A DNA stretch of 32,000 nt from Nitrososphaera viennensis EN76 (GTDB taxonomy: Archaea > Thermoproteota > Nitrososphaeria > Nitrososphaerales > Nitrososphaeraceae), in contig NZ_CP007536.1 in NCBI RefSeq assembly GCF_000698785.1, positions 1,260,001-1,292,000 on the forward strand. The letters are read 5' to 3'. The notes beneath the pieces are model-generated. The model did no database searches and was not told the DNA's origin. It saw only the letters and a program-made list of their open reading frames with translations. The translations under genes were made by a program, and so were the position numbers. Positions 4,806-16,573 of the stretch are shown one piece after another. Positions within the stretch are counted from its first letter, which is position 1, and each line of letters starts with the position of its first letter.

Positions 4806-4905
4806 GTATCTAGCCTTGCAGCATGATGCGTAGACTACAACTGGTAGGAAAAAGTATCCGGGATCTTCATTATTGAAGGCGTTTTGCAGGATAATTTATA
4901 AATAC

Positions 4906-4914
4906 GTAGATTAC
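4906..4914 (+). promoter_or_regulatory. GTAGWTTAC motif copy (ACGTAGATTAC)
   Basis: Exact 9-mer lying between the TATA-like TTTATAAATA (4893..4902) and the ParB-like ATG (4928). Confidence 0.4.
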
Positions 4915-4927
4915 TAATACTTTTGCG

Positions 4928-5677
4928 ATGCAGGTCAAGAACATCCCTGTCAACATGATAGACATAGCCGAGGAAAACGTCAGGAAGGACCACTCTTTCG
5001 GGGAGGACGACAAGGACAGGCTCATCAAGGAGCACTTGTCAAAGTTTGACCTGCTGCAGCCGGTCGTCGTGCGCTTTGACGACAAGAGCAGGCGCTACAA
5101 GCTGCTGATAGGGCGCAGGCGCTTTTTCGCGCTCAGCGCCAAGGGCGAGACCCAGATACCCGCCGTCGTCACTGAGCTGGAGGGCGCAGAGGCAGAAGCC
5201 GCGTCGCTCTTTGAGAACCTCATAAGAAAAGACCTGTCGCCGCTTGAAAAGGCAAGGATGGTCAAGAGGCTCGTCGACACCACAAAAGCAGGCATTACAG
5301 GTGTAGCGGCAAAGTACGGCCTGCCAAAGAGCACGGTGAGCGAGTGGCTCAGCATATTATCATTGCCGCAGGTGCTGCAGGACAACATCGACCAGGGCAG
5401 GATAACTTCGTACGAGGCCATCAGGATAGCAAGAAAGCCAAAGACTGTGCAAGAGAAACTGGTAGTCGCGGCGCAGGAGGGCAGGCTGCAGGAAGAGATG
5501 GCCGAAGCAGGGGTAAAGCGCGGGGCGCCAAAGGGCCTGCTGACTGTCCGCCTTGTGTTCGACCCGAGGAAAAAATCCGACAAGCAGCTGTGGGAAAAGC
5601 TCAACGCAAAGGCAGAGGAGAGCGGCCTTGACGTCACCGACTATGCGAGGAGCATCCTTTCAAGGCACGTGCAGTAA
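4928..5677 (+). CDS. ParB/Spo0J-like N-terminal domain protein with HTH (orphan, no ParA adjacent)
   Basis: 249 aa. The ParB-type N-domain carries the arginine patch (LLIGRRRFFAL, compare the GxxRxxA box). It is followed by an HTH resembling ParB (ITGVAAKYGLPKSTVSEWLSILSLPQVLQ). Confidence 0.8.
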   Translation: MQVKNIPVNMIDIAEENVRKDHSFGEDDKDRLIKEHLSKFDLLQPVVVRFDDKSRRYKLLIGRRRFFALSAKGETQIPAVVTELEGAEAEAASLFENLIRKDLSPLEKARMVKRLVDTTKAGITGVAAKYGLPKSTVSEWLSILSLPQVLQDNIDQGRITSYEAIRIARKPKTVQEKLVVAAQEGRLQEEMAEAGVKRGAPKGLLTVRLVFDPRKKSDKQLWEKLNAKAEESGLDVTDYARSILSRHVQ

Positions 5678-5688
5678 GACACACGCAC

Positions 5689-5697
5689 GTAGATTAC
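5689..5697 (+). promoter_or_regulatory. GTAGWTTAC motif copy (GCACGTAGATTAC, distal)
   Basis: First copy of a 13-bp direct repeat, GCACGTAGATTAC (5685..5697), repeated at 5728..5740. Confidence 0.4.
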
Positions 5698-5731
5698 GTT
5701 CTTTGGCGCGCTCGTGCGCAAAAAGTGGCAC

Positions 5732-5740
5732 GTAGATTAC
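5732..5740 (+). promoter_or_regulatory. GTAGWTTAC motif copy (GCACGTAGATTAC, proximal)
   Basis: Second copy of the 13-bp direct repeat. It is centred about 56 nt upstream of the ureohydrolase ATG (5792), just upstream of the TATA-like ATATTTAAGAAAT. Confidence 0.4.
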
Positions 5741-5791
5741 TTAGCAATATTTAAGAAATACTTACTAATTACTTACAGGTGCTGAAAAGGC

Positions 5792-6940
5792 ATGGGAATG
5801 GAATTTTACGGTGATTCGTACAAGGGAAATGACGAGCCGATTTTTGTAGGCATACCAACCTTCCTAAAGCTGCCCTGGCTAAGGAGCAAGGCAGAGCTGG
5901 AAAAAGTCAGGCCGGACGTGGCCATCATAGGAGAGCCGTTCGACTTTGGCACCACCATCCGCCCGGGAGCAAGGTACGGCCCAAGGGCAATCCGCGCGGC
6001 CTCGACCGTCCCGTCCCCGCCGTACGAGCACTTTAACATAGAGACAGGCGTCGACCCGTTTGGCGTGTTCAGGACAGTCGACTATGGCGACGTCAACATA
6101 TCGCCCGGCGACGTGGTAGAGTCGCACAGGCGCATGACAGAGAAGGTGAAGGAGGTGCTTGACATCGACGGCATCCCGGTGATGCTTGGCGGAGATCATT
6201 CAATTACGTTTGCCAACGTGCGCGCCTTTGCAAAAAAATACAAGAACATCGGCATGATCCACATCGACACCCATGCCGACTGCGCGCCGCAGGGCCTGAC
6301 AGGCTTCAAGTACGACCACGGCGCCCACATCCGCAGGATAATGGAGCTTGGGTGCCTCAAGGGCAAGAACTACACCCTCATCGGCCCGAGGGGCTACTGG
6401 CCGGGGCCGGACCTCTACAAGTGGATGGCCGACCAGGACTTTCAGTGGTTCACTATGCTCGACGTTGAAGAACTTGGAATCGACAAGATAGCAAAAGAGG
6501 CAGCAGACAGGGCAAACGACAACGTCGACGCAGTCTACATCAGCTGGGACATTGACACGTTTGACCCCGCGTATGCGCCGGGAACAGGCGAGCCGGAGCC
6601 AAACGGCCTGACTTCCAGAGAAGGCATGCGCCTCATGCGCCTGCTTTCGACGTCATTTGACCCGGACAGGTTTGCGTTTGACCTTGTCGAAGTCGCGCCA
6701 AACTATGACGTAAGCGACGGAAGCTCGTACAATGGTGGCATCACGTCCGGCCTTGCCAACAGGCTCATTGTCGAGTTGCTTGCCGGCCTGTCGCTGACAA
6801 AGAAGGGCAAGACGGAAGGGACCCCGGTGAGGCCAAACCTCTACCGCGGAAAAGGCCACACGTACGACTTTGGCAACGGACCCAAGGCCAAGGTGCCAAA
6901 GAGGCCGCCCCTGAACTACGGCCCAAAGGTAAAGAGGTAG
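5792..6940 (+). CDS. arginase-family ureohydrolase (agmatinase-like) with a roughly 50-aa basic C-terminal extension
   Basis: 382 aa. All arginase-family metal-binding motifs are present: GGDHSIT, IHIDTHADC (DxHxD) and SWDIDTFDPAYAPGTG (SxDxDxxDP). The substrate (agmatine or another guanidino compound) cannot be told from the sequence. Confidence 0.9.
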   Translation: MGMEFYGDSYKGNDEPIFVGIPTFLKLPWLRSKAELEKVRPDVAIIGEPFDFGTTIRPGARYGPRAIRAASTVPSPPYEHFNIETGVDPFGVFRTVDYGDVNISPGDVVESHRRMTEKVKEVLDIDGIPVMLGGDHSITFANVRAFAKKYKNIGMIHIDTHADCAPQGLTGFKYDHGAHIRRIMELGCLKGKNYTLIGPRGYWPGPDLYKWMADQDFQWFTMLDVEELGIDKIAKEAADRANDNVDAVYISWDIDTFDPAYAPGTGEPEPNGLTSREGMRLMRLLSTSFDPDRFAFDLVEVAPNYDVSDGSSYNGGITSGLANRLIVELLAGLSLTKKGKTEGTPVRPNLYRGKGHTYDFGNGPKAKVPKRPPLNYGPKVKR

Positions 6941-6943
6941 CAG

Positions 6944-7339
6944 ATGATCTACATCAAGGCAGTTGCAAAGGGCGAGCCTGACGCGGCCCCCCTTGCCAAA
7001 TTTTTTCAGTACATCGATTCTACGGACGAAGTCATCCTGCAGCATTCGATAGAGATGGTAAAGGACAAGATTGACAAAAACCTGAAGCTGAACGTAAACG
7101 AGGCATTTTTGCTGTACGCGTATTTTGTTGCAAACCAGATGCGCGCCAAGAAGAAGGCGGCCGAGATCGAAAAGGACGCCAAGTCGCTCCTTTCGCCAGG
7201 CCAAGTCATGATAGGCGTCCCGGAAACTTTGAGGATTGTCACGTTTGACGCCATAGTTGACGGGAAAAGGGAATGGGTGACTTTGCAAGAGCCCATGTCC
7301 GTGTCAAGCTACGTAATGGCAGCCAATCATCAAGGCTAA
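6944..7339 (+). CDS. urease gamma subunit (UreA)-like paralog with N- and C-terminal extensions
   Basis: 131 aa, with the ATG 3 nt after the ureohydrolase stop. A hand alignment to the ureA product in this window gives about 23 identities over about 71 positions. Examples are LKLN-EA, LLSPGQVMIGVPE against [13 protein letters not shown], and DG..VT..P. Confidence 0.75.
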   Translation: MIYIKAVAKGEPDAAPLAKFFQYIDSTDEVILQHSIEMVKDKIDKNLKLNVNEAFLLYAYFVANQMRAKKKAAEIEKDAKSLLSPGQVMIGVPETLRIVTFDAIVDGKREWVTLQEPMSVSSYVMAANHQG

Positions 7340-7348
7340 TAATAATTC

Positions 7349-8242
7349 TCAGTGCGCGTGCCTGTGATCCTTTTCATGCGCGTGTGCGTGTACGTGCACC
7401 ACCACCCCATGTGAGTGCATGTGGTACTTTTTGCGCAGAAACGAGTACAGCGCAGATATGCCAAATGCGGCCGCTCCAAACAGCACAATCGTAGCGCCTG
7501 ACGCTGAGTCGAGGAAAAAGCTGGAATACATGCCGGCAAAGGCAGTAGCCGCGCCTATCGCGGTAGAAAGTGCAAGCATCTTTTGAAAGTTGTTTGTCAG
7601 CATCCTTGCAGAGATGGCCGGCGCAACTATGGCGGCCGCAAGCAAGGTCACGCCTATTGCAGACATTGACGCGATCACGACCGTGGCAAGGATGAACGAA
7701 AACGCCAGCTCCACTGTTTCCACCCGGATTCCATAGACCCGGGCCGTGTCCTTATCAAAGAGCGTAAAGAGCAGGCGCTTGTGGAAGAACGTGATGAACA
7801 GCGCCGTTGCGGCAGTGGCTATTGCTATCATGGCCACATCCTGGCCGGTTATCCCAAGTATGTTGCCAAAGAGTATCGATTCAAAGTCGCGTGTAAAGCT
7901 CCGGGTGGTGCTTATCAAGAGCACGCCGACTGCAAAGCCGGCTGTGGTGACGACGCCTATCGCCGCGTCGGCCTTGATCTTGCTCCTGCGGCTTATCTCG
8001 TTTATCGCAAACGCCGAGAGGAACCCCCACAGGGCGGCCCCAATGTACATGTTAAAGCTCAGGATATAGCTCACGACGGCGCCGCCAAACACCGCGTGCG
8101 ACATGCCATGCCCGATGTAGCTCATGCCGCGCAGGATTATGTAGACCCCAAGGAGCCCGCAGGAGCCCCCGACCATTATGGCGACCAGTATCCCCCGCGT
8201 GAAAAACTCGTATTGGAACGGCTGCAGCAGAAGGTCCATCAT
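7349..8242 (-). CDS. metal ABC transporter permease (ABC-3, ZnuB/TroC/MntB-like) with a His-rich C-terminal tail
   Basis: The track ORF extends to 8362, but that part overlaps the ATPase gene. ATG at 8242 (MMDLLLQPF...) lies 2 nt after the ATPase stop. The protein is polytopic. Its last 24 residues, HMHSHGVVVHVHAHAHEKDHRHAH, contain 10 His. Confidence 0.85.
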   Translation of the reverse strand: MMDLLLQPFQYEFFTRGILVAIMVGGSCGLLGVYIILRGMSYIGHGMSHAVFGGAVVSYILSFNMYIGAALWGFLSAFAINEISRRSKIKADAAIGVVTTAGFAVGVLLISTTRSFTRDFESILFGNILGITGQDVAMIAIATAATALFITFFHKRLLFTLFDKDTARVYGIRVETVELAFSFILATVVIASMSAIGVTLLAAAIVAPAISARMLTNNFQKMLALSTAIGAATAFAGMYSSFFLDSASGATIVLFGAAAFGISALYSFLRKKYHMHSHGVVVHVHAHAHEKDHRHAH

Positions 8243-8244
8243 CG

Positions 8245-8976
8245 TCAGCGTCCCCCCTCCGTGTCCACCACCAGCCCGTAGGTTGCAAGCAGGTTTTCGT
8301 TGGTCAGTATGTCGGCGGGCCGCCCCTGCGATATTATGCGCCTGTTCATGCACACGACCCACGGGAGCCGGCGCGCCACGCCCGAAATGTCGTGCGTGGT
8401 GAGGATCACCGTGACGCCCTTTTGGTTCAGCTCGCCAAGCACGCCAAGTATCGCCTCCCGGGTGGCGTGGTCGACGCCGGAGGTCGGCTCGTCAAGCACG
8501 AGTACGTCAGGGGAGCGGATCATCGCCCTTGCAAGAAAGACGCGCTGCTGCTCGCCCCCGGAAAGCTCGCTTATCTGCCGCGACGCGTAATCGCCTATGC
8601 CGAGGCTTTCAAGTACGCGCATTATCGCCTCGCCGGCGGCGCTTCCTATCCACGGGCCCCTGCCCGAGCTATTCCACACGCCCATCGACACGACCTCCTT
8701 GACGGTGACCGGGAAATTCCAGTCAACGCTTTCCACCTGCGGCACGTACCCTATTTTGCGCCCCCTTTCTAGGTCCACAGAGCCGTGCCACGGCTTGACA
8801 AGGCCGGCTATCACCTTCAAAAGCGTAGTCTTGCCCGAGCCGCTTGGCCCCAGGATGCCGACAAAGCTCCCTGCGGCTATGCTCAGGTTGACGCCCTCTA
8901 TCACCGGCCGGTTGTAAGAGTAGCCGTAGGTTACTTCCCCGAGCGTGACTGCGCCGGCCGCCTTCATTCCTGTCAC
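8245..8976 (-). CDS. metal ABC transporter ATP-binding protein (ZnuC/TroB-like)
   Basis: Walker A GPSGSGKTT, ABC signature LSGGEQQR and Walker B VLVLDEPTSGVD. The start overlaps the upstream SBP stop (ATGA). Confidence 0.92.
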   Translation of the reverse strand: MTGMKAAGAVTLGEVTYGYSYNRPVIEGVNLSIAAGSFVGILGPSGSGKTTLLKVIAGLVKPWHGSVDLERGRKIGYVPQVESVDWNFPVTVKEVVSMGVWNSSGRGPWIGSAAGEAIMRVLESLGIGDYASRQISELSGGEQQRVFLARAMIRSPDVLVLDEPTSGVDHATREAILGVLGELNQKGVTVILTTHDISGVARRLPWVVCMNRRIISQGRPADILTNENLLATYGLVVDTEGGR

Positions 8977-9995
8977 AAATCCCCCGTATACGTATCAGCA
9001 GGATCTATGTCTGAAAGCGCGTCGACGTTTCCGCCAAGTGGGACTATCATGTTGCGCATGTTTTCAAGCATCATGCCAACGTAGGTGTGTCCGGGCTCGC
9101 CGGCGTTGCCCGGCAGCGCGTCGTCCCGCAGCGTTTCTACGACCTGGACGTTGGCTTCCTTTGCTATCTGGTCGACCACCTTGCTCTGGAACACCTCGGA
9201 AGCAAATATTGCCGGCACTTTTTCCTGGCGTATCTGGTCGATTATGCTTGCCACCTCCTGCGGAGTCGGCTCGCCAAAGTCTGACGGCTGCACTGCCCCT
9301 ATCACCTTCATGCCGTAGCGGGGCGCAAAATAGGCCCACGAGTCGTGGTACGTGAGAAGCTTGCGTTGCTCGGCAGGGATCGTCTGTACAGACGCCATGA
9401 TGCCCTGGTCAAGCCTCTGGAGCAGCGCAAGGTACCTGTCCGCGTTGGCCCTGTAATAGTCTGCATTGCCAGGGTCCATCTCCACCAGCTTGTCGCGCAC
9501 AAGCTGCGCGTACTTTATGGCGTGGGCGACGTTGAGCCACAGGTGCGGGTTAGGATCGCCGCCCTCTTCAGGGAAGCTAAAGTCAAAGACCCACTGGTCG
9601 CGGGTTATGGTGCTGTCCGCCAGCCTCAAAATCTGGAGGTCTGGCTTGCCGGCAGCTTGTGCCACCCTTTCGATGTCGGTCTCCAGATGGAGGCCGTTTA
9701 TGATGACGAGGTCGGCTTTTCCGACGGCGATCGAGTCTGAGGGCGCAAGCTCAAAAGTATGGGAATTCACGCCTTCCGGCACAAGGCCGGTGAGCTGTAT
9801 CCTGTCGCCTCCAACATTTCTGACGATGTTTGTTATCGGCGCCACAGACGTGACAACTGCCAGCTTTTCGCTCTCCACGCTGGCAGGGGTAGGGACAGGG
9901 TTTGCGCCCGCAGACATGGCGGCCACCCCAATTATCGCCGCCACGACCACAATGGCCGCAATTATCCCTATTGCTTTAGCGTTTGCCAACTGCAA
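8973..9995 (-). CDS. metal-binding ABC substrate-binding protein (cluster A-I, TroA/ZnuA/PsaA family), membrane-anchored
   Basis: 340 aa with a TTG start and an N-terminal hydrophobic anchor. Family-typical ligand contexts are NSHTFE, NPHLWL, YHDSWAYF and LRDDALP. Metal specificity cannot be determined from the sequence. Confidence 0.88.
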   Translation of the reverse strand: MQLANAKAIGIIAAIVVVAAIIGVAAMSAGANPVPTPASVESEKLAVVTSVAPITNIVRNVGGDRIQLTGLVPEGVNSHTFELAPSDSIAVGKADLVIINGLHLETDIERVAQAAGKPDLQILRLADSTITRDQWVFDFSFPEEGGDPNPHLWLNVAHAIKYAQLVRDKLVEMDPGNADYYRANADRYLALLQRLDQGIMASVQTIPAEQRKLLTYHDSWAYFAPRYGMKVIGAVQPSDFGEPTPQEVASIIDQIRQEKVPAIFASEVFQSKVVDQIAKEANVQVVETLRDDALPGNAGEPGHTYVGMMLENMRNMIVPLGGNVDALSDIDPADTYTGDL

Positions 9996-10013
9996 ACGCC
10001 TCCACAGAAACTA

Positions 10014-10041
10014 GTATTACTGTATTGTATTTGCGTAATAC
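10014..10041. promoter_or_regulatory. NikR-operator-like palindrome GTATTAC-N14-GTAATAC (site A)
   Basis: Perfect 7-bp inverted repeat read directly. It is centred 32.5 nt upstream of the ABC operon start (9995). Confidence 0.5.
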
Positions 10042-10095
10042 CATATTCATCCCAACTGTTGCGCGAGGTAAGATAAAAAGTTTCTACAATTATCA

Positions 10096-10104
10096 GTAAA
10101 CTAC
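10096..10104 (-). promoter_or_regulatory. GTAGWTTAC motif copy (reads GTAGTTTAC on the minus strand)
   Basis: Exact 9-mer, about 105 nt upstream of the ABC operon start and in the same orientation as the operon. Confidence 0.3.
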
Positions 10105-10246
10105 CCAAGTTCACTTGGAAACGAATGTGTAGAATACACAACAGGATTCTGCCGACATCGGCTAAATACTCGCACTGAAAAACAGACGATTTGTGTGGAA
10201 GGGCGGCAAGCACGATATGGATTCTGGAAACAATAATGCAAAAAAC

Positions 10247-10403
10247 TACACTGTTAAGTTGGCTGCGCATTTTGCCCTTTTTATTCGGATGTTAAGTTAC
10301 GGATGGTTTTTTGGCATGGTGAACACCTGTACGTCGCACAATATCACCCGCAAGTTAACGCCTGGCAGAAAAGATGGAAATCAGCAGCCAACTTAACAGT
10401 GTA
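10247..10403. mobile_element. MITE-like non-autonomous element (157 bp) with 20-bp perfect terminal inverted repeats and an 8-bp flanking duplication
   Basis: TIR TACACTGTTAAGTTGGCTGC at 10247..10266 has its exact reverse complement at 10384..10403. CAAAAAAC lies immediately outside both ends (10239..10246 and 10404..10411). There is no ORF inside. Confidence 0.55.
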
Positions 10404-10525
10404 CAAAAAACGGTACTGTTAACTTATCGTTGGCTACACTTCCACTTCATAATTTTATTAGTAGATGATAAGTTAACGTACCAATTACCGACATATTTTT
10501 TAGGAACGCAAGCCTATGTCAACTA

Positions 10526-10553
10526 GTATTACTTTACTTGAAATAAGTAATAC
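10526..10553. promoter_or_regulatory. NikR-operator-like palindrome GTATTAC-N14-GTAATAC (site B)
   Basis: Perfect 7-bp inverted repeat. It shares the 13-mer AACTAGTATTACT with site A and is centred 37.5 nt upstream of ATG 10577. Confidence 0.5.
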
Positions 10554-10576
10554 GAAAAGAGAATGTATGGAAATTG

Positions 10577-10789
10577 ATGCTCGACAAAAGCAAAAAGGCT
10601 ATCCGTGTCCTGATAATAATCATCGCGTCGATCACGCTGATTGTAATGGTATTTGGATATATTTCTACACAACATAACGTCTTGATAAGAGGTACCAATT
10701 CGCCAACAAGTGCTCCTACTAAACTCTGTGATAGCATACTATCTCTTCCATGCTTCGACAACCAGTCTCGTCAACAGTATAGAAGATGA
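10577..10789 (+). CDS. candidate small membrane protein (70 aa)
   Basis: Track ORF (TTG 10574 or ATG 10577) with one clear hydrophobic helix (AIRVLIIIIASITLIVMVFGYI). Support comes mainly from operator-like site B lying at the same distance as in the other sites. The region is AT-rich, so it could be spurious. Confidence 0.3.
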   Translation: MLDKSKKAIRVLIIIIASITLIVMVFGYISTQHNVLIRGTNSPTSAPTKLCDSILSLPCFDNQSRQQYRR

Positions 10790-10959
10790 CCTTCAACTCA
10801 TTTTCTTGCCTTCAGACGAACCTAGGTGTACGGTAGAGCCTGTGCGTGTCCATGTGTGTATTATATGCGATCATCCGGAAGATAGAAAAATCGAAAACGA
10901 ATAGTATGCTACTCTATGCTACAACACATTATCACACGTATCTAACAATACATGTGTCT

Positions 10960-11370
10960 CTACTTATCTTGGAAGGAGCGGCGAAATCCATTCATCGTGG
11001 AACTTCTTGTAGTCTTTGTATAGGCAGGCGAATGAAACGAAGGATCTTTCAGAGAACTAAAATCATATACTTCGTAGGATTGAATAATATCTCCAAACAG
11101 GTTTCTGCAGATGTCACTCTCTTCATCGGCTATTTCCTCTGATTCAAACGACTGAATAGATATCCAATCATATCTACCTTTTGTGCGCCCAGAAAACAAC
11201 ACAAAAGGAGCATCAACAAGGTATTTTTTCAAACTTTCGATCCTCATCGGAAGATGTTGCGATGTTCTAAATATTATAAGAACAACCCGTATTACGTGTT
11301 TTCGAATTTCCTTTCTCCTTTTTGCGGGCTCCGCCACCATATCGACAAAAATGTCTTTGCTGTCTCCCAT
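10960..11370 (-). CDS. hypothetical protein (136 aa)
   Basis: Longest ORF in the AT-rich islet, with an ATG start. Operator-like site C is centred 37.5 nt upstream. No family recognised. Confidence 0.45.
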   Translation of the reverse strand: MGDSKDIFVDMVAEPAKRRKEIRKHVIRVVLIIFRTSQHLPMRIESLKKYLVDAPFVLFSGRTKGRYDWISIQSFESEEIADEESDICRNLFGDIIQSYEVYDFSSLKDPSFHSPAYTKTTRSSTMNGFRRSFQDK

Positions 11371-11391
11371 TATGACAAGAAGGATTATTTG

Positions 11392-11423
11392 TAGTAATAA
11401 GTTTTACCATAAAAGTATTACTA
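11392..11423. promoter_or_regulatory. NikR-operator-like palindrome TAGTAATA-N16-TATTACTA (site C)
   Basis: Perfect 8-bp inverted repeat. It has the same 28-bp core geometry as sites A, B and D (GTAATAa-N14-GTATTAC at 11394..11421). Confidence 0.45.
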
Positions 11424-11558
11424 GATATAAAGTGTAAAAAGATCAGAGGATCACCCGAGCATATCTATGCCAGCAAGTAGCATTTCACAATGCATCAATC
11501 AACATAAAATGTCAAAATGTGAAGCCTTATCGGTGCCCAAACCATGTGTTTTGTCGTT

Positions 11559-12005
11559 TCAGACAACCGAGACAAAATGCACTTTCAGGCTTTTTATCCC
11601 GCGGTTTTCAGACAGCTTTTTGGCAAGCTCCTTTATCCGCCTTATTTCTCCCTTCACCATCACCGTCTCGAGGCAGTTGTCGTGGTCAAGGTGCAGATGG
11701 GTCGAGGCGCTGATGATATCGCTGTAGTGGTGCTGTACGTGCGTAGACTCTGAATCGTGGTTGTACGCATGGTTGTCGTACAGCATCATTATCGCGCCTG
11801 CGCCGTTGCGGCTGTCTTCGCCCTTGTCCCAGTCATACTGGGCTATAAACGAGTGCAGAGCAGTCTGTATGGCCTTGGACCTGTCTGAAAAACCGGCGCT
11901 CTTCATAGACTTGTCAAATTCCGACAGCAGGTCTGGCGAGAGGGACATGCTGATGCGCTCGACTGGCTCTTTTTTCCGGTGCTTGTGCGAATGGCGCTTT
12001 GACAA
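11559..12005 (-). CDS. nikR: nickel-responsive transcriptional regulator NikR
   Basis: 148 aa. The RHH N-domain (ERISMSLSPDLLSEFDK...RSKAIQTAL) is followed by a C-terminal metal-binding domain, HVQHHYSDIISASTHLHLDHDNCLE. That matches the E. coli NikR His/His/His/Cys ligand region (QHHHH...LHVHINHDDCLE). TTG at 12005 is the only start that keeps the RHH strand, and it adds a His-rich N-terminus (KRHSHKHRKK). Confidence 0.9.
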   Translation of the reverse strand: MSKRHSHKHRKKEPVERISMSLSPDLLSEFDKSMKSAGFSDRSKAIQTALHSFIAQYDWDKGEDSRNGAGAIMMLYDNHAYNHDSESTHVQHHYSDIISASTHLHLDHDNCLETVMVKGEIRRIKELAKKLSENRGIKSLKVHFVSVV

Positions 12006-12047
12006 GTGCTTTTAATATAGTGGCAAGCAATTTAAAAGTTTAAAAAG

Positions 12048-12077
12048 AGTAATACTTTTTAGCTAAAATTTATTACT
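12048..12077. promoter_or_regulatory. NikR-operator-like palindrome AGTAATA-N16-TATTACT (site D)
   Basis: Perfect 7-bp inverted repeat in the nikR upstream region. It is centred 57.5 nt from the nikR TTG and 36.5 nt from the divergent ATG at 12099. Confidence 0.5.
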
Positions 12078-12098
12078 AAGCTGTGCATCTACAATTGC

Positions 12099-12266
12099 AT
12101 GACACTTGAACCGGTTATTGTCAAGCTTGCCAGAAGAAGAAAAGAGATCGCACGGATGGGCATGTATAGAGACGAAAAGTACGTGTTTTCCAAGGCGCCC
12201 GACTCTGATCCTGTAGGGCTTCTTCTGAAAGAGGCTAGAAAGAATATTCTTCCTTCTTCTTCCTAA
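12099..12266 (+). CDS. candidate small protein (55 aa), divergent from nikR
   Basis: Below the track cutoff and translated by hand: MTLEPVIVKLARRRKEIARMGMYRDEKYVFSKAPDSDPVGLLLKEARKNILPSSSS*. GC rises at its start. Site D sits at the same distance from its ATG as sites B and C do from theirs. The 3' end overlaps the thermosome stop by 4 nt. Confidence 0.3.
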   Translation: MTLEPVIVKLARRRKEIARMGMYRDEKYVFSKAPDSDPVGLLLKEARKNILPSSS

Positions 12267-13978
12267 TAGTAGTGGTGCATGGGGCGCTGCTGCTTGCCCA
12301 GCTTGTCAAAGTGGTCGTGCACCTGCTTGCCGCCGCGGTGCGAATGAGTCGTGCCGTCAGAGTGAGTGTGGGTATAGTAGGCAGGCTTGGCCATCACCAC
12401 ATCATCGACGCGCAAGAGCAGGTCGGCAACTTCGGCTGCTGCAGTCATCACCTGCTCCTTGACTGCAAGTGGCTCTATGACGCCAAGCGCAAGCATGTCC
12501 TGCACCCTGCGCTCCAGCGCGTTTATGCCGCACCAGCCGCCTCCCTTTCCTTTTTCCTTGGTGCCGGCAGCGCGCAGCTGCGCCTGCACGTCAATGACAT
12601 CCATGCCGGCGTTTGCCGCAATTGTCAGCGGGATCTCTTCAAGCGCGTCTGCAAACTTTAGGATCGCAAGCTGCTCCCTGCCCTCCACTGTCAGGGCGCT
12701 TTCCCTCACTGCCCTTGCGGCAAGGGCCTCTGCGGCGCCTCCACCTGCAACCACGGACGGGCTTGCGACAAAGTCGCGCAGAACGTTCAGTGCGTCAAGG
12801 ATGGAGCGGTGGAACTCGTCAAGAACCTTGGCAGAGCCGGCGCGCAGGAGTATTGTGACAGAGCGCGGGTTTCTGCATTCTTCCACAAAGACCATCCTGT
12901 CATCGCCCACAAACCTTTCGCAGACTCTGCCAGCGTAGCCAAGGTCAGACTGTGAAATGCTGTCAAGGTCTCTTGTTATTTTTGCGCCCGTGGCTTTTTC
13001 CAGCCACCACAGGTCGTTTTCCTTTACCCTGCGCACAGACATGATGCCGGCATGCGCAAGCATGGTCTGCGCAAGCGTGTTGATGCCTCCGCGCGATATC
13101 ACGACGTTTGCGCCCGAGTCGATTATGGTCTGCACCTTTCGTCGCAGCTCAAAGGCCTGCTCGTCAAGGTACGCCCTGATCTGCGCAGGGAGCGTGATCC
13201 CGATCTCCGCGTCGGCGCGCGTGTTCTTTTTGCTGTCAAGGTCATAGTCGATGAGCAGGATTTTTGCATTGTCAATTGACTTGGGCATCGACGAGCTGTC
13301 GACAGTCTTGTCGATGACGATGCCGGCGACAAGCTGCGTGTCTTGTACGCTGCCGGGCTTTTGCTCCATCTTGACGTCGTCGATTTCCAGCCTGCCGGAT
13401 GCAGGATCGGAAACAACTGCCATTACTGCGTCAACCACCAGCCTTGCGATGCGCTCCTTTTCCATGCAGGACGAAATCGCCTTTGACTCCAGGCACGTCG
13501 TGGCGAGGCGCTCCATCGTCTTTCTGTCAGAATTATTTGCGTGCTTTATCGCGTGCGACAAGAGGGCGTCCATCGCGGTGGCAAGGGCCCGGCGGTAGCC
13601 GTCAGAGATGGTTGCAGGGAGAACGCCAAGCTCGAGAAGCTCCTCTGCCCTTGCCACAAGGGCGCCCGCAAGGACAACCACAGAAGTGGTGCCGTCGCCC
13701 ACCGCGTTGTCGACTGCGGTTGAAGCCTCGATGAGCACCTTTGCCGCCGGGTGCTCGACGTCAATCTTGCGCAGGAGCGTCGCGCCGTCCTTTGTCAGCG
13801 TCACCTCTCCCATGATGTCGACGAACACCTTGTCCATGCCCCGGGGACCAAGCAGCCCCTTGACCATCTCTGAGATGAGCCTGGCCGCAAGCATGTTGTA
13901 CCTGCGCGCTTCGCCCCCGCTCGTCCTTTTTACTCCTTCGCCAAACAGCTCTTGGCCTTTTGGCTGCGCGGCCATCAT
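12263..13978 (-). CDS. ths: thermosome subunit (group II chaperonin, Cpn60/TCP-1 family) with an atypical His-rich C-terminal tail
   Basis: 571 aa. Hallmark motifs are LGPRGMDK, GDGTTS, VAGGGAAE and IDVEHPAAK. The last 38 aa, YYTHTHSDGTTHSHRGGKQVHDHFDKLGKQQRPMHHYY, contain 8 His in place of the usual Gly/Met-rich tail. Confidence 0.95.
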   Translation of the reverse strand: MMAAQPKGQELFGEGVKRTSGGEARRYNMLAARLISEMVKGLLGPRGMDKVFVDIMGEVTLTKDGATLLRKIDVEHPAAKVLIEASTAVDNAVGDGTTSVVVLAGALVARAEELLELGVLPATISDGYRRALATAMDALLSHAIKHANNSDRKTMERLATTCLESKAISSCMEKERIARLVVDAVMAVVSDPASGRLEIDDVKMEQKPGSVQDTQLVAGIVIDKTVDSSSMPKSIDNAKILLIDYDLDSKKNTRADAEIGITLPAQIRAYLDEQAFELRRKVQTIIDSGANVVISRGGINTLAQTMLAHAGIMSVRRVKENDLWWLEKATGAKITRDLDSISQSDLGYAGRVCERFVGDDRMVFVEECRNPRSVTILLRAGSAKVLDEFHRSILDALNVLRDFVASPSVVAGGGAAEALAARAVRESALTVEGREQLAILKFADALEEIPLTIAANAGMDVIDVQAQLRAAGTKEKGKGGGWCGINALERRVQDMLALGVIEPLAVKEQVMTAAAEVADLLLRVDDVVMAKPAYYTHTHSDGTTHSHRGGKQVHDHFDKLGKQQRPMHHYY

Positions 13979-14183: not shown

Positions 14184-14486
14184 ATGATGCTTGCTCCACG
14201 GGAGATAGACAAGCTGTACATTTTCATGGCCGCAGAGGTGGCGCGAAAAAGGCGTGCAAGGGGACTAAAGCTGAACTACCCAGAGGCGGTGGCGCTCATT
14301 TGCGACCACATTGTAGAAGGGGCACGCGACGGCAGGTCGGTGCCAGAGCTTATGAGCTCCGGCAGGCAGGTGCTTTCAAGGAGCGACGTCCTCCCCGGAG
14401 TGCCAGAGCTTGTCAAACAGGTGCAGGTAGAAGCGACGTTTGAGGATGGCACGAAACTTGTGACAGTGCACAACCCCATAGTGTGA
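14184..14486 (+). CDS. ureA: urease subunit gamma
   Basis: 100 aa with a canonical UreA sequence ([12 protein letters not shown]...[12 protein letters not shown]). Confidence 0.97.
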
Positions 14487-14495
14487 TCCCTCGAC

Positions 14496-14861
14496 ATGAT
14501 ACCGGGCGAGTATTTCATTGCTTCAGACAAGCCGGTGACGGCAAATTCCGGCAGGAAAACGACGGGAATCAAGGTGACCAACACGGGCAACAGGCCGGTG
14601 CAGGTAGGCTCGCATACGCACTTTTTTGAGGTCAATAAGGCGCTTTTGTTCCCGCGGGAAAAGGCGTACGGCTTTCACCTGAACATCCCGTCGGGAACTT
14701 CGCTGCGCTTTGAGCCCGGCGACACGCGGCAAGTCGAGCTGGTAGAGTACGGCGGCAGGAAAACAGTGTACGGATTTTCCGGCCTTGTTAACGGCAAGCT
14801 GTCAATGAAAAAGAGGCAAGCGCTTGCAAAGGCAAAGGCAAGGGGGTTTGCGGGCGCTTGA
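14496..14861 (+). CDS. ureB: urease subunit beta
   Basis: 121 aa with a canonical UreB N-terminus (MIPGEY...[19 protein letters not shown]). Confidence 0.97.
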
Positions 14862-16573
14862 CGCTTGAAATCCCGCGCAGGCAGTACGTCGACCTCTACG
14901 GCCCGACCAAGGGCGATAGGGTGAGGCTAGCAGACACTGACCTGATAATAGAGGTAGAAAAGGATCTGCTTTCGCATGGCGACGAGCTGGTGTTTGGAGG
15001 CGGCAAGAGCGTCCGCGACGGAGCAGGCCAGACAGGCGGCGTGACAAGCAGCAGGCAGGCACTTGACCTTGTCATAACAAACGCGATAGTGATGGACCCG
15101 GTGCTAGGGATAGTCAAGGCCGACATCGGGATAAAGGACGGCAGGATAGCTGGAATTGGCAAGGCTGGAAACCCGGATGTCATGGACAAGGTCGACATGA
15201 TAGTGTCATCAAGCACAGAGGTCATAGCCGGCGAGCATACGATATGCACGCCCGGGACCATTGACACGCACATCCACTTCATCTCGCCCCAGCAGGCGGT
15301 AGAGGCGATATGCACCGGCACGACCACAATGATAGGAGGTGGGACGGGCCCGACTGATGGCACGAACGCGACGACGTGCACGCCGGGGCCCTGGAACATC
15401 CACAGGATGCTTGAAGCCCTTGACGAGCTCCCGCTGAACTTTGGGCTGCTCGGCAAGGGAAACGACTCGCGCGAGCCGGCCCTCATCGAGCAGATTGCGG
15501 CAGGCGCCTGCGGGCTGAAGCTCCACGAAGACTGGGGCTCCACGCCGGCTGCGATAGACGCCGCGCTCAGAGTAGCAGACAAGACCGACACGCAAGTGGC
15601 GATACATACGGACACGCTCAACGAGTGCGGCTTTGTCGATGACACGATTGAAGCGATAGCAGGGCGTACCATCCACACGTACCACACGGAAGGTGCCGGT
15701 GGGGGACACGCGCCGGACATTTTAAAGATCGCCGGCGAGAACAACATCCTGCCGTCTTCGACAAATCCTACGAAGCCGTTTACTGTAAACACGCTGGAGG
15801 AGCACCTTGACATGATGATGGTGTGCCACCACCTGAGCCCCTCCATCCCGGAGGACGTGGCGTTTGCCGAATCGCGAATACGCGCAGAAACGATTGCTGC
15901 GGAGGACGTGCTGCACGACATTGGCGCGCTTTCCATGTACTCGTCAGACAGCCAGGCGATGGGAAGGGTGGGCGAAGTGACCACGAGGGCGTGGCAGACT
16001 GCAGACAAGATGAAAAAGATGGCCGGCAGGCTAAAGGGCGAAAAGGGCGACAACGACAACCTGCGCGCAAAGAGATACCTGGCAAAGCTCACGATAAACC
16101 CGGCCATCACGCACGGCATCTCTGCCTACGTCGGCTCGCTTGAAAAAGGCAAGATAGCGGACATTGTCATCTGGACGCCGCAGTTCTTTGGAGTCAAGCC
16201 AAAGATGGTGGTAAAGGGAGGGTTCATAGCGTACTCGCTGATGGGCGACCCAAACGCGTCCATACCGACGCCCGAGCCGGTGTACTACAGGCCGATGTTC
16301 GGGTCGATGGGCGCTGCAAAATACTCTACGTCGTTCACGTTCACGTCAAAGCTTGCAGTCAGAAACGGCGTCGGGAAAAAGCTGGGACTAAGGAAAAAGC
16401 TGCTGCCCGTGAAAAACTGCCGCAGGATTGGCAAGCGGAACATGCTGTACAACGACCTTGCGCCAAAGATAGACGTCGACCCGGAGACGTACGAGGTCAA
16501 GGTGGACGGCAAGGTGGCGACAAGCGAGCCGGCAAAGAGCCTCTCGATGGCTAGGCTCTACAACCTGTTCTAG
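14858..16573 (+). CDS. ureC: urease subunit alpha
   Basis: 571 aa. The TTG start overlaps the ureB stop (TTGA). Active-site motifs are [17 protein letters not shown] (carbamylated Lys), [27 protein letters not shown] and SSDSQAMGR. Confidence 0.97.

Follow-up and report, generated by a model that had tools for sequence, protein, structure and literature searches.

How does a Nitrososphaera-type archaeon register that it holds enough nickel, and which genes answer to that signal? The question is raised by a 32,000-nucleotide stretch of the Nitrososphaera viennensis EN76 genome (contig NZ_CP007536.1, positions 1,260,001 to 1,292,000; called the window in the following and numbered from its first letter), in which four palindromes, here named sites A to D, lie around a gene for the nickel-responsive regulator NikR. 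The original prediction had read the palindromes as a NikR regulon, with each site at a fixed distance upstream of a start codon. Our analysis indicates that the palindromes are very probably NikR operators, as predicted from their sequence. The complete explanation that we favor, and consider probable, is that of four NikR boxes, of which site A represses nickel uptake and site D autoregulates nikR, with sites B and C lacking a conserved target. The data directly show the sites with their statistics, how far they are conserved, and that they go with nikR and nickel transporter genes. From sequence and gene context, we infer the binding of NikR, its dependence on nickel, repression as the sign of the control, and the promoter positions of the boxes.

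Four palindromes beside nikR

The pattern GTAWTA-N16-TAWTAC matches the window exactly four times (at 10014, 10526, 11394, and 12049) and nowhere else in it, with 0.00 matches expected from whole-window shuffles. Because the region holding the sites is far richer in AT than the rest of the window (GC of 0.37 to 0.40 at 10000-11500, versus 0.55 to 0.60), the test was repeated on 10000-12100 alone. Local first-order Markov simulations gave 0.0016 expected matches for the 4 observed, with at most 1 in 5000 simulations, which rules out a chance origin in AT-rich DNA.

All four sites have a 7-N14-7 layout with a total length of 28 bp, and the preferred form of the motif is GTAWTAC-N14-GTAWTAC. Sites A (10014..10041) and B (10526..10553) are perfect matches of the form GTATTAC-N14-GTAATAC, termed class 1, and have AACTAGTATTACT in common (repeat family D1). 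Site A ends 18 nt before the TTG that starts a substrate-binding-protein gene, and site B lies in a strain-specific insert. Sites C (11394..11421; GTAATAa-N14-GTATTAC) and D (12049..12076; GTAATAC-N14-tTATTAC) belong to an "everted" class 2, with the central W in the opposite sense and one inner-base mismatch each. Site C is found 138 nt past the nikR stop codon, and site D is found 43 nt upstream of the nikR TTG. Over wider spans, site C reads TAGTAATA-N16-TATTACTA (11392-11423), and site D forms the near-perfect 30-bp palindrome AGTAATA-N16-TATTACT (12048-12077).

Re-reading the window together with the pattern search reproduced the site coordinates and sequences of the original prediction, as well as its extended arms and the AACTAGTATTACT shared by sites A and B. 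The distances that it gave from the site centers to start codons (32.5, 37.5, 37.5, and 36.5 nt for sites A to D) are arithmetically correct. The four-gene regulon that it built on this fixed distance does not stand, as three of the four starts do not come from credible genes.

A position weight matrix (PWM) derived from orthologous sites scores site A at 21.3 bits, site B at 26.5 bits (the highest value in the window), site C at 15.2 bits, and site D at 16.7 bits, and these are the only matches in the window with 12 bits or more. The scan of the window gave no further site at the urease genes, in the ureA-thermosome spacer, at the thermosome gene, at the arginase-family gene, or elsewhere, which for the ureA-thermosome spacer agrees with what had been noted before.

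The box recurs between nikR and transporter genes

For comparison, 66 loci (840 kb) from species-representative genomes, nearly all from Nitrososphaerales, were collected with a profile of NikR homologues; individual loci are given below by numbers with the prefix L. The motif scans covered these fetched loci and the 32-kb window. With up to one mismatch allowed, GTAWTAC-N14-GTAWTAC occurs 27 times in the 66 loci, against 0.55 expected. Twenty-five of the 27 boxes lie within 600 bp beyond a nikR stop codon, a zone that makes up 4.4% of the DNA, and the remaining two (L004 and L005) are located just upstream of the gene for the substrate-binding protein of an ATP-binding cassette (ABC) transporter.

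All 27 boxes directly precede either a NiCoT nickel permease gene or a ZnuA/TroA-type ABC operon. Orthologues of the ABC genes follow nikR and the box in L002 to L007, L009, L010, L013, L014, L016, L020, L023 to L028, L035, L038, and L042. The alternative downstream gene encodes a permease of about 270 residues with an RHA-x-D-x-DH signature, belonging to the Pfam family NicO (high-affinity nickel transporter family). The order of nikR, site, and transporter gene holds, with the same geometry, at 34 transporter-proximal sites of related loci. The consensus of 35 oriented sites is [G/T/A]TAWTAC-N14-[G/T]TAATAC, in which TA-W-TAC and TAATAC show little or no variation, in contrast to the 14-nt spacer. 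The site center lies 35.5 to 41.5 nt from the start of the ABC binding protein, being exactly 41.5 nt in six GC-rich Nitrososphaera, and 36.5 to 57.5 nt from the likeliest NiCoT start. Every PWM hit of at least 14 bits in the 840 kb stands beside nikR, a result that is not independent, as the matrix was trained on the same loci; the independent statistic is the positional enrichment near the nikR stop.

In their length and geometry, and in the relatedness of their half-sites, the window sites agree with NikR boxes. Conservation at orthologous genes, which the original prediction had suggested checking, was found broadly for site A and in the closest lineage only for site D; sites B and C are not conserved, their insert being missing in the closest relative. 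Likewise, a promoter location at a nickel-uptake gene or at nikR itself was found for sites A and D and not for sites B and C.

NikR as the probable binding protein

The gene between sites C and D (nikR, 11559-12005, minus strand, TTG start) had been described as a bona fide nikR with conserved metal ligands, and Pfam, NCBIfam, and an alignment of 21 homologues all agree. Its product has the ribbon-helix-helix plus NikR_C architecture of the family, matching Pfam NikR_C with an E value of 1.1e-25 and scoring 125 bits against NCBIfam NF002169 (cut-off 111) and 90.5 bits against NF002815 (cut-off 83). The PDB matches are 2bj1, 2ca9, and 1q5v, the best being Pyrococcus horikoshii NikR (PDB ID 2bj1; E = 1.1e-22) with residues 17 to 143 aligned, which makes this protein the best solved relative of the window NikR.

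The three-His/one-Cys nickel ligand set is present. Positions H92, H103, H105, and C111 are invariant in the 21 homologues and line up with QH...HxH...NCLE in the proteins from P. horikoshii and Helicobacter pylori; the equivalents in Escherichia coli NikR are H76', H87, H89, and C95. The conserved DNA-contacting beta-strand, RISMSL, lies 5' of the internal ATG, and translation of nikR therefore starts at TTG 12005 or at a codon close to it. The recognition strand of the window NikR has the form R-x-S-x-S, while E. coli NikR, which binds GTATGA, carries R-x-T-x-T.

A scan of public metagenome contigs for the exact sequence GTATTAC-N14-GTAATAC returned at least 120 loci, which represent a sample. 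Among the 120 matches listed, at least 13 encode a NikR homologue, and at least 11 have the box 40 to 95 nt upstream of nikR, on contigs with a GC content of 0.45 to 0.71. The NikR proteins on these GC-rich contigs (at least 11) are only 28 to 44% identical to the query proteins, indicating that the contigs are not thaumarchaeal. At least two of them carry a divergent gene whose N-terminus looks NikM/CbiM-like, as judged by eye and not by a family test. The matches listed also include at least one thaumarchaeal locus with the order nikR, box, and NiCoT. The NikR proteins beside the listed metagenome boxes carry the R-x-S-x-S strand, as the window NikR does. These sequences suggest that one box type serves NikR in distant bacteria too and that the half-site is widespread.

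Published NikR boxes are inverted repeats of 27 to 28 bp (Rodionov et al. 2004, PMC545781). The enterobacterial form is GTATGAT-N13/14-ATCATAC, the E. coli nik operator being GTATGA-N16-TCATAC, and the form predicted for delta-proteobacteria is GTGTTAC-N13/14-GTAACAC. The same study also gives a version with reversed half-sites and a GTaTTAC half-site (Table 4 of that study, predicted sites). The half-site GTATTAC is identical to GTGTTAC at 6 of 7 positions and to GTATGAT at 5 of 7. The difference of one base per half-site from the E. coli GTATGA that had been proposed applies to GTATTA; for GTAATA, the difference is two bases. The occurrence of the box beside nikR in distant bacteria, together with its match to the published boxes, means that NikR is well supported as the binding protein.

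A different regulator might bind the palindromes, such as the Lrp-like protein represented by the pseudogene at site C or another metal sensor, with the nearness of nikR reflecting no more than a shared neighborhood. An Lrp-like gene is indeed present in the neighborhood, being intact in L062 and a pseudogene in the window, and Zur-, MntR-, or TroR-type regulators normally control this ABC family. However, the box goes with nikR and not with the transporter type, standing always beside nikR whether a NiCoT or an ABC gene follows. The identical motif is also found upstream of nikR in the GC-rich non-thaumarchaeal contigs, which lack the window neighbors tested, orf136 included, and both the geometry and the half-site fit the published NikR boxes. 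We regard binding by another regulator as very unlikely.

The related genomes also hold a second clade of nikR paralogues, about 58 to 66% identical, in about 24 loci (L015, L017, L018, L021, L022, L025, L027, L032 to L034, L036, L040, L041, L044 to L048, L050, and L055 to L061). Neither a GTAWTAC box nor a transporter gene lies near them, and several genomes carry both paralogues. A search for an alternative palindrome near the second clade gave nothing convincing; a recurrent GTAATAGATCATTCAACAAAATATTA element is found 1.2 to 1.6 kb upstream, amid unrelated small genes.

Site A and the exchangeable uptake genes

Site A is predicted to be the conserved operator of an ABC importer operon (7349-9995, minus strand; Pfam ZnuA, ABC_tran, and ABC-3). 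The operon encodes a ZnuA/TroA-family substrate-binding protein with a TTG start (8973-9995), an ABC ATPase (8245-8976), and an ABC-3 permease with a His-rich tail (7349-8362), all on the minus strand. The assignment of site A to this operon in the original prediction is upheld by the conservation of the arrangement in many genomes.

The closest species-level relative is the metagenome-assembled genome (MAG) DASZTR01 (L001), with a NikR identity of 92% and a nucleotide identity of 82 to 86%. Between site A and its L001 orthologue, the arms are identical, the spacer has diverged, and the upstream DNA is conserved. The gene behind the orthologous operator is the ABC operon in the window and a NiCoT gene in L001 and L188, indicating that uptake modules have been swapped at or near the operator. 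The L001 contig (DASZTR010000114; compared with the window, 7294-10090 and 14369-16025) has no ABC operon, and its ureC is present as fragments only. The NiCoT in place of the ABC operon and the fragmented ureC point to gain and loss of nickel-uptake modules and urease inside one species-level lineage.

In the proposed mechanism, the two ribbon-helix-helix dimers of a nickel-loaded NikR tetramer would each occupy one GTAWTAC half-site, the half-sites being 21 bp or two helical turns apart, and NikR on the box would block the assembly of the archaeal pre-initiation complex. As site A would overlap the core promoter or the early transcribed region, uptake would be turned off when nickel is sufficient. 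The promoter itself may differ between clades. In the low-GC relatives, a TATAAAA-like sequence occupies the 14-nt spacer within the box, with the start codon at 35.5 to 37.5 nt, and NikR would straddle a TATA box inside the spacer. The GC-rich clade that includes the window has a spacer with less resemblance to a TATA box and a GGAGG ahead of the start codon. Here, a TTTTTAT element (10072-10078, minus strand), located 30 nt upstream of site A and conserved in the window, L001, L002, and L006, is a possible TATA box of the ABC operon, in which case site A may cover about +8 to +35 of the transcript. Both positions, over the TATA box and just downstream of it, are repressor positions in archaea. 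The TATA-like elements of well-defined window genes lie about 20 to 50 nt upstream of the start, mostly at 22 to 40 nt, so that short or absent leaders fit.

The substrate-binding protein and the permease score below every NCBIfam zinc/manganese equivalog cut-off (models matched: ZnuA, AztC, MntC, and ABC-3), and the scan of the operon's proteins against Pfam and NCBIfam gave no match to a nickel-transporter family that would mark them as nickel specific. We predict that this ABC system imports nickel, on the grounds of its NikR box, the neighboring nikR gene, its interchange with NiCoT behind the operator, and the His-rich tail of the permease.

The permease C-terminus is rich in His residues (HMHSHGVVVHVHAHAHEKDHRHAH), and so is the tail of the thermosome paralogue located between ureABC and nikR (…YYTHTHSDGTTHSHRGGKQVHDHFDKLGKQQRPMHHYY); the order of thermosome gene and nikR is kept in L001, L062, and L188. 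The His-rich tails suggest nickel handling, perhaps by a urease-dedicated chaperonin.

Between nikR and the transporter operator, four Nitrososphaera share a conserved element, TAGCCGATGTCGGC, which contains the palindrome GCCGA-NN-TCGGC and has diverged flanks (window, 10149-10164, read on the minus strand; L001, 7014-7027; L002, 10705-10718; L006, 10583-10596). This element might form a terminator stem for nikR or be bound by another protein.

Site D and the nikR promoter

Site D lies upstream of nikR, as had been noted, and autoregulation is plausible. The second gene proposed for it, starting at ATG 12099, is not upheld. The corresponding open reading frame, orf55 (12099..12266, plus strand, downstream of site D), is not conserved and is probably no gene: about 110 nt of orf55 are missing between the thermosome gene and nikR in L001 and L062, and in L001, the equivalent ATG is followed by an immediate stop codon. 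The sequence comparison points to nikR, and not orf55, as the true target of site D, with 57.5 nt between the site center and the nikR TTG start.

The window, L001, L062, and L188, which represent the lineage with nikR after the thermosome gene, all have the site ahead of nikR, and in the more distant loci, no box was found upstream of nikR outside this closest lineage. Its dyad is maintained by symmetric double substitutions (GTGATAA..GTATCAC in L188 and ATAATAA..GTATTAT in L001), a sequence pattern that speaks for selection on the dyad. Immediately past site D, on the nikR side, the T/A-rich element CTCTTTTTAAACTTTWAAATTGCT (12029..12047, minus strand) is almost invariant in the same four loci while the flanks diverge, and it is probably the TFB recognition element (BRE) and TATA box of the nikR promoter. 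As site D abuts this element, bound NikR would clash with transcription factor B (TFB) and the TATA-binding protein (TBP), which would result in a negative autoregulation specific to the lineage with nikR after the thermosome gene.

NikR may instead act as an activator or dual regulator at some sites, chiefly at site D, which ends 43 nt from the nikR start, upstream of the TATA-like run and not covering it. A precedent is H. pylori NikR, for which dual regulation, as at ureA, is established (PMC5385501). However, the transporter boxes lie over or just past the core promoter, which is a repressor position, and the proximal half-site of site D directly abuts the expected place of the BRE. In all studied cases, NikR represses uptake genes (PMC545781). 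Activation by NikR appears distinctly improbable.

Sites B and C in a strain-specific insert

Sites B and C lie in the AT-rich spacer of about 1.5 kb that extends from site A to nikR. Most of it is a strain-specific insert of 1.4 kb (10169..11556, GC of 0.37 to 0.40), containing the two sites, orf71, the orf136 pseudogene, and a long hairpin. L001 lacks 10169-11556, with both flanks aligning, and a look-up for other copies of the insert gave only an identical copy, from one sequencing run (L187).

Neither of the start codons that the original prediction had assigned to these sites belongs to a credible gene. Downstream of site B, orf71 (10574..10789, plus strand, with ATG 10577) is an orphan and probably not a gene, having no Pfam match, no real homologue among 1.84 billion representative proteins, and no match in the fetched loci. 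Next to site C, orf136 (10967..11370, minus strand, with ATG 11370) corresponds to residues 63 to 161 of a conserved 179-residue Lrp-like protein. Residues 154 to 179 are found in another frame, with the frameshift near 11017-11044, and the first 62 residues, which hold the helix-turn-helix (HTH) domain, are missing. The frame change and the missing HTH domain identify orf136 as a 5'-truncated pseudogene; L062 carries a full-length copy of the Lrp-like gene beside its thermosome gene.

Site C and its 18-nt flank repeat site D and the TATA-like flank of the latter in inverted orientation (11392-11439 and 12031-12078, 77% complementary; repeat I2). From their sequences, sites B and C appear to be real NikR-type boxes, most likely by-products of the duplication or recombination of operator-bearing promoter DNA, and they would be at most auxiliary or titrating. 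A comparable case is found in L019 (a Nitrosopolaris MAG), where a second NikR-type box, ATAATAC-N14-ATAATAC (5957-5984), precedes a truncated NiCoT paralogue (6001-6363). This box is an operator duplicated along with a gene fragment.

The alternative that all four sites are working operators would require sites B and C, and site D on the plus strand, to control unannotated products: a small membrane protein from orf71, a stand-alone ligand-binding domain from orf136, orf55, or a small or antisense RNA running from site C into the nikR 3' end. The arms of sites B and C are kept (14/14 and 13/14 positions) despite diverged flanks and spacers, with about 0.002 expected by chance, and their centers lie 36.5 to 37.5 nt from ATG codons, as at many genuine transporter genes. 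Site C with its flank reproduces the nikR promoter, both box and TATA-like run, aimed at nikR on the plus strand, and class-2 boxes are also located past the nikR stop in L002 (122 nt) and L003 (142 nt). However, orf71 is without homologues, orf136 is truncated and frameshifted, and orf55 is missing in L001 and L062; the closest relative has none of the insert, and the region gave no match to an Rfam family. We consider four working operators unlikely.

The palindromes could also be structural or mobile-DNA features, either the termini or targets of a small element that brought the insert or terminator hairpins. The location of sites B and C inside an insert missing in relatives, the pairing of A with B and of C with D as repeats, and the exchange of the gene behind the operator among close relatives, which implies recombination at or near the box, are consistent with mobile DNA. 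However, in 30-odd genomes, the box is a single-copy element at the orthologous promoter position and is not dispersed, and neither a transposase gene nor longer terminal repeats were found in the window. As terminators or RNA structures, the sites were rejected: they fold weakly (-5 to -8 kcal/mol), with A-U stems, no T-tract, and no Rfam family. Altogether, a structural or mobile-DNA origin of the boxes is extremely unlikely.

An imperfect hairpin with 67-nt arms is located between sites A and B (10247-10403), with a perfect 18-bp repeat, CACTGTTAAGTTGGCTGC, which lengthens to a stem of 20 bp on folding. The folding energy is -63 kcal/mol (z = -4.9). The hairpin has no counterpart in any fetched locus and no Rfam match, and may be the remnant of a small mobile element.

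Returning to four NikR boxes with an uptake repressor at site A and an autoregulatory site D, several observations weigh against this explanation. No credible gene lies behind site B or C. In sites C and D, the central W is reversed relative to the transporter boxes, and one arm position is mismatched in each. The spacing of site D (14, 13, 15, and 14 nt among the window, L001, L062, and L188) is loose for a rigid two-turn operator. At site A, the sequence fits two promoter models equally, one with a TATA box in the spacer and one with TTTTTAT 30 nt upstream. The family of the ABC transporter is known for zinc and manganese and not for nickel, and the second clade of nikR paralogues has no GTAWTAC-type box nearby. 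Finally, the visible regulon is small, with no site in the PWM scan before the urease, thermosome, and arginase-family genes.

A more far-reaching version, which we put forward tentatively and hold to be rather doubtful as a whole, would have soil ammonia-oxidizing archaea control their nickel supply from one conserved NikR operator, with NiCoT and ABC modules exchanged behind it through recombination, the ABC system being an unrecognized nickel importer within a zinc/manganese family. Sites B and C would then be active and tune NikR occupancy through titration, looping, or antisense transcription into nikR, and the module would serve urease and possibly a nickel-dependent arginase-family enzyme.

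Neighboring genes and a second conserved motif

On the far side of site D, nikR is followed by the thermosome paralogue (12263-13978, minus strand) and ureABC (14184-16573, plus strand). Beyond the ABC operon, an arginase-family gene (5792-6940, plus strand) is directly followed by an open reading frame for a urease-gamma-like protein of 131 residues (6944-7339, plus strand). The arginase/agmatinase-family protein is 93 to 98% identical across genomes (window, L001, L011, L012, and L031) in which NikR is 68 to 92% identical. Its gene is always followed by the 131-residue urease-gamma-like open reading frame and adjoins nikR and the nickel transporter gene. The protein scores below the agmatinase equivalog cut-off and may be a nickel-dependent hydrolase of the guanidine or agmatine type that has an accessory subunit of its own.

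The window also contains three copies of another conserved motif, ACGTAGATTAC[T/G] (4904-4915, 5687-5698, and 5730-5741, plus strand), against 0.07 expected. It sits upstream of a gene with ParB_N and HTH_ParB domains (4928-5677) and upstream of the arginase-family gene. Elsewhere, it is found in L001 (9704), L011 (3778, 8037, and 8111), L012 (5568, 5642, and 9782), and L031 (3534 and 7767). It stands before the arginase-family orthologues of four other loci and, in L011, before the ParB-like gene too. The motif is a candidate operator of the ParB-like protein, distinct from the NikR box.

Comparison with known nickel and metal regulators

The proteobacterial NikR operators resemble the present boxes in their dyad symmetry, their 7-bp half-sites, their length of 28 bp, and their place in the promoter of an uptake gene next to nikR (PMC545781). 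Versions with reversed half-sites exist in proteobacteria, as in sites C and D here. In contrast, the boxes described here belong to thaumarchaeal TBP/TFB promoters, where the step blocked would be pre-initiation-complex assembly and not the binding of sigma-70. The proteobacterial targets are NikABCDE and NikMNQO, whereas here, they are NiCoT or ZnuA/TroA-type ABC genes. Four boxes within 2.1 kb and the consensus [G/T/A]TAWTAC-N14-[G/T]TAATAC further set this locus apart.

H. pylori NikR recognizes the consensus TATWATT-N11-AATWATA and has multiple operators, autoregulation, and both repression and activation. It shares with the window NikR the R-x-S-x-S strand, AT-rich TAWTA-like half-sites, and several operators, one of them at nikR. 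Its half-site centers are 18 bp apart, compared with 21 bp here. Moreover, ureA is a direct target in H. pylori, whereas here, no box precedes the urease genes and there is no evidence for activation. Among archaeal metal repressors, MDR1 of Archaeoglobus has a dyad operator over or just past the TATA box of a metal-uptake ABC operon, with the metal as co-repressor. The operator placement is alike, but MDR1 belongs to the DtxR family and not to the NikR family.

Significance for nickel uptake in Nitrososphaera

Nitrososphaera-type archaea drive soil nitrification, and many of them use urea via the nickel enzyme urease; to our knowledge, nickel sensing and import in these archaea have not been described before. 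Our literature search found no operator described for any thaumarchaeal NikR. The well-supported result is thus the first operator consensus for a thaumarchaeal NikR in the literature searched, representing a known kind of switch and not a new regulatory principle. It provides a testable operator consensus and assigns the neighboring NiCoT genes and ZnuA-type ABC operons to nickel uptake. If the ABC system does import nickel, the label "zinc/manganese ABC transporter" would probably be wrong in dozens of Nitrososphaeraceae genomes.

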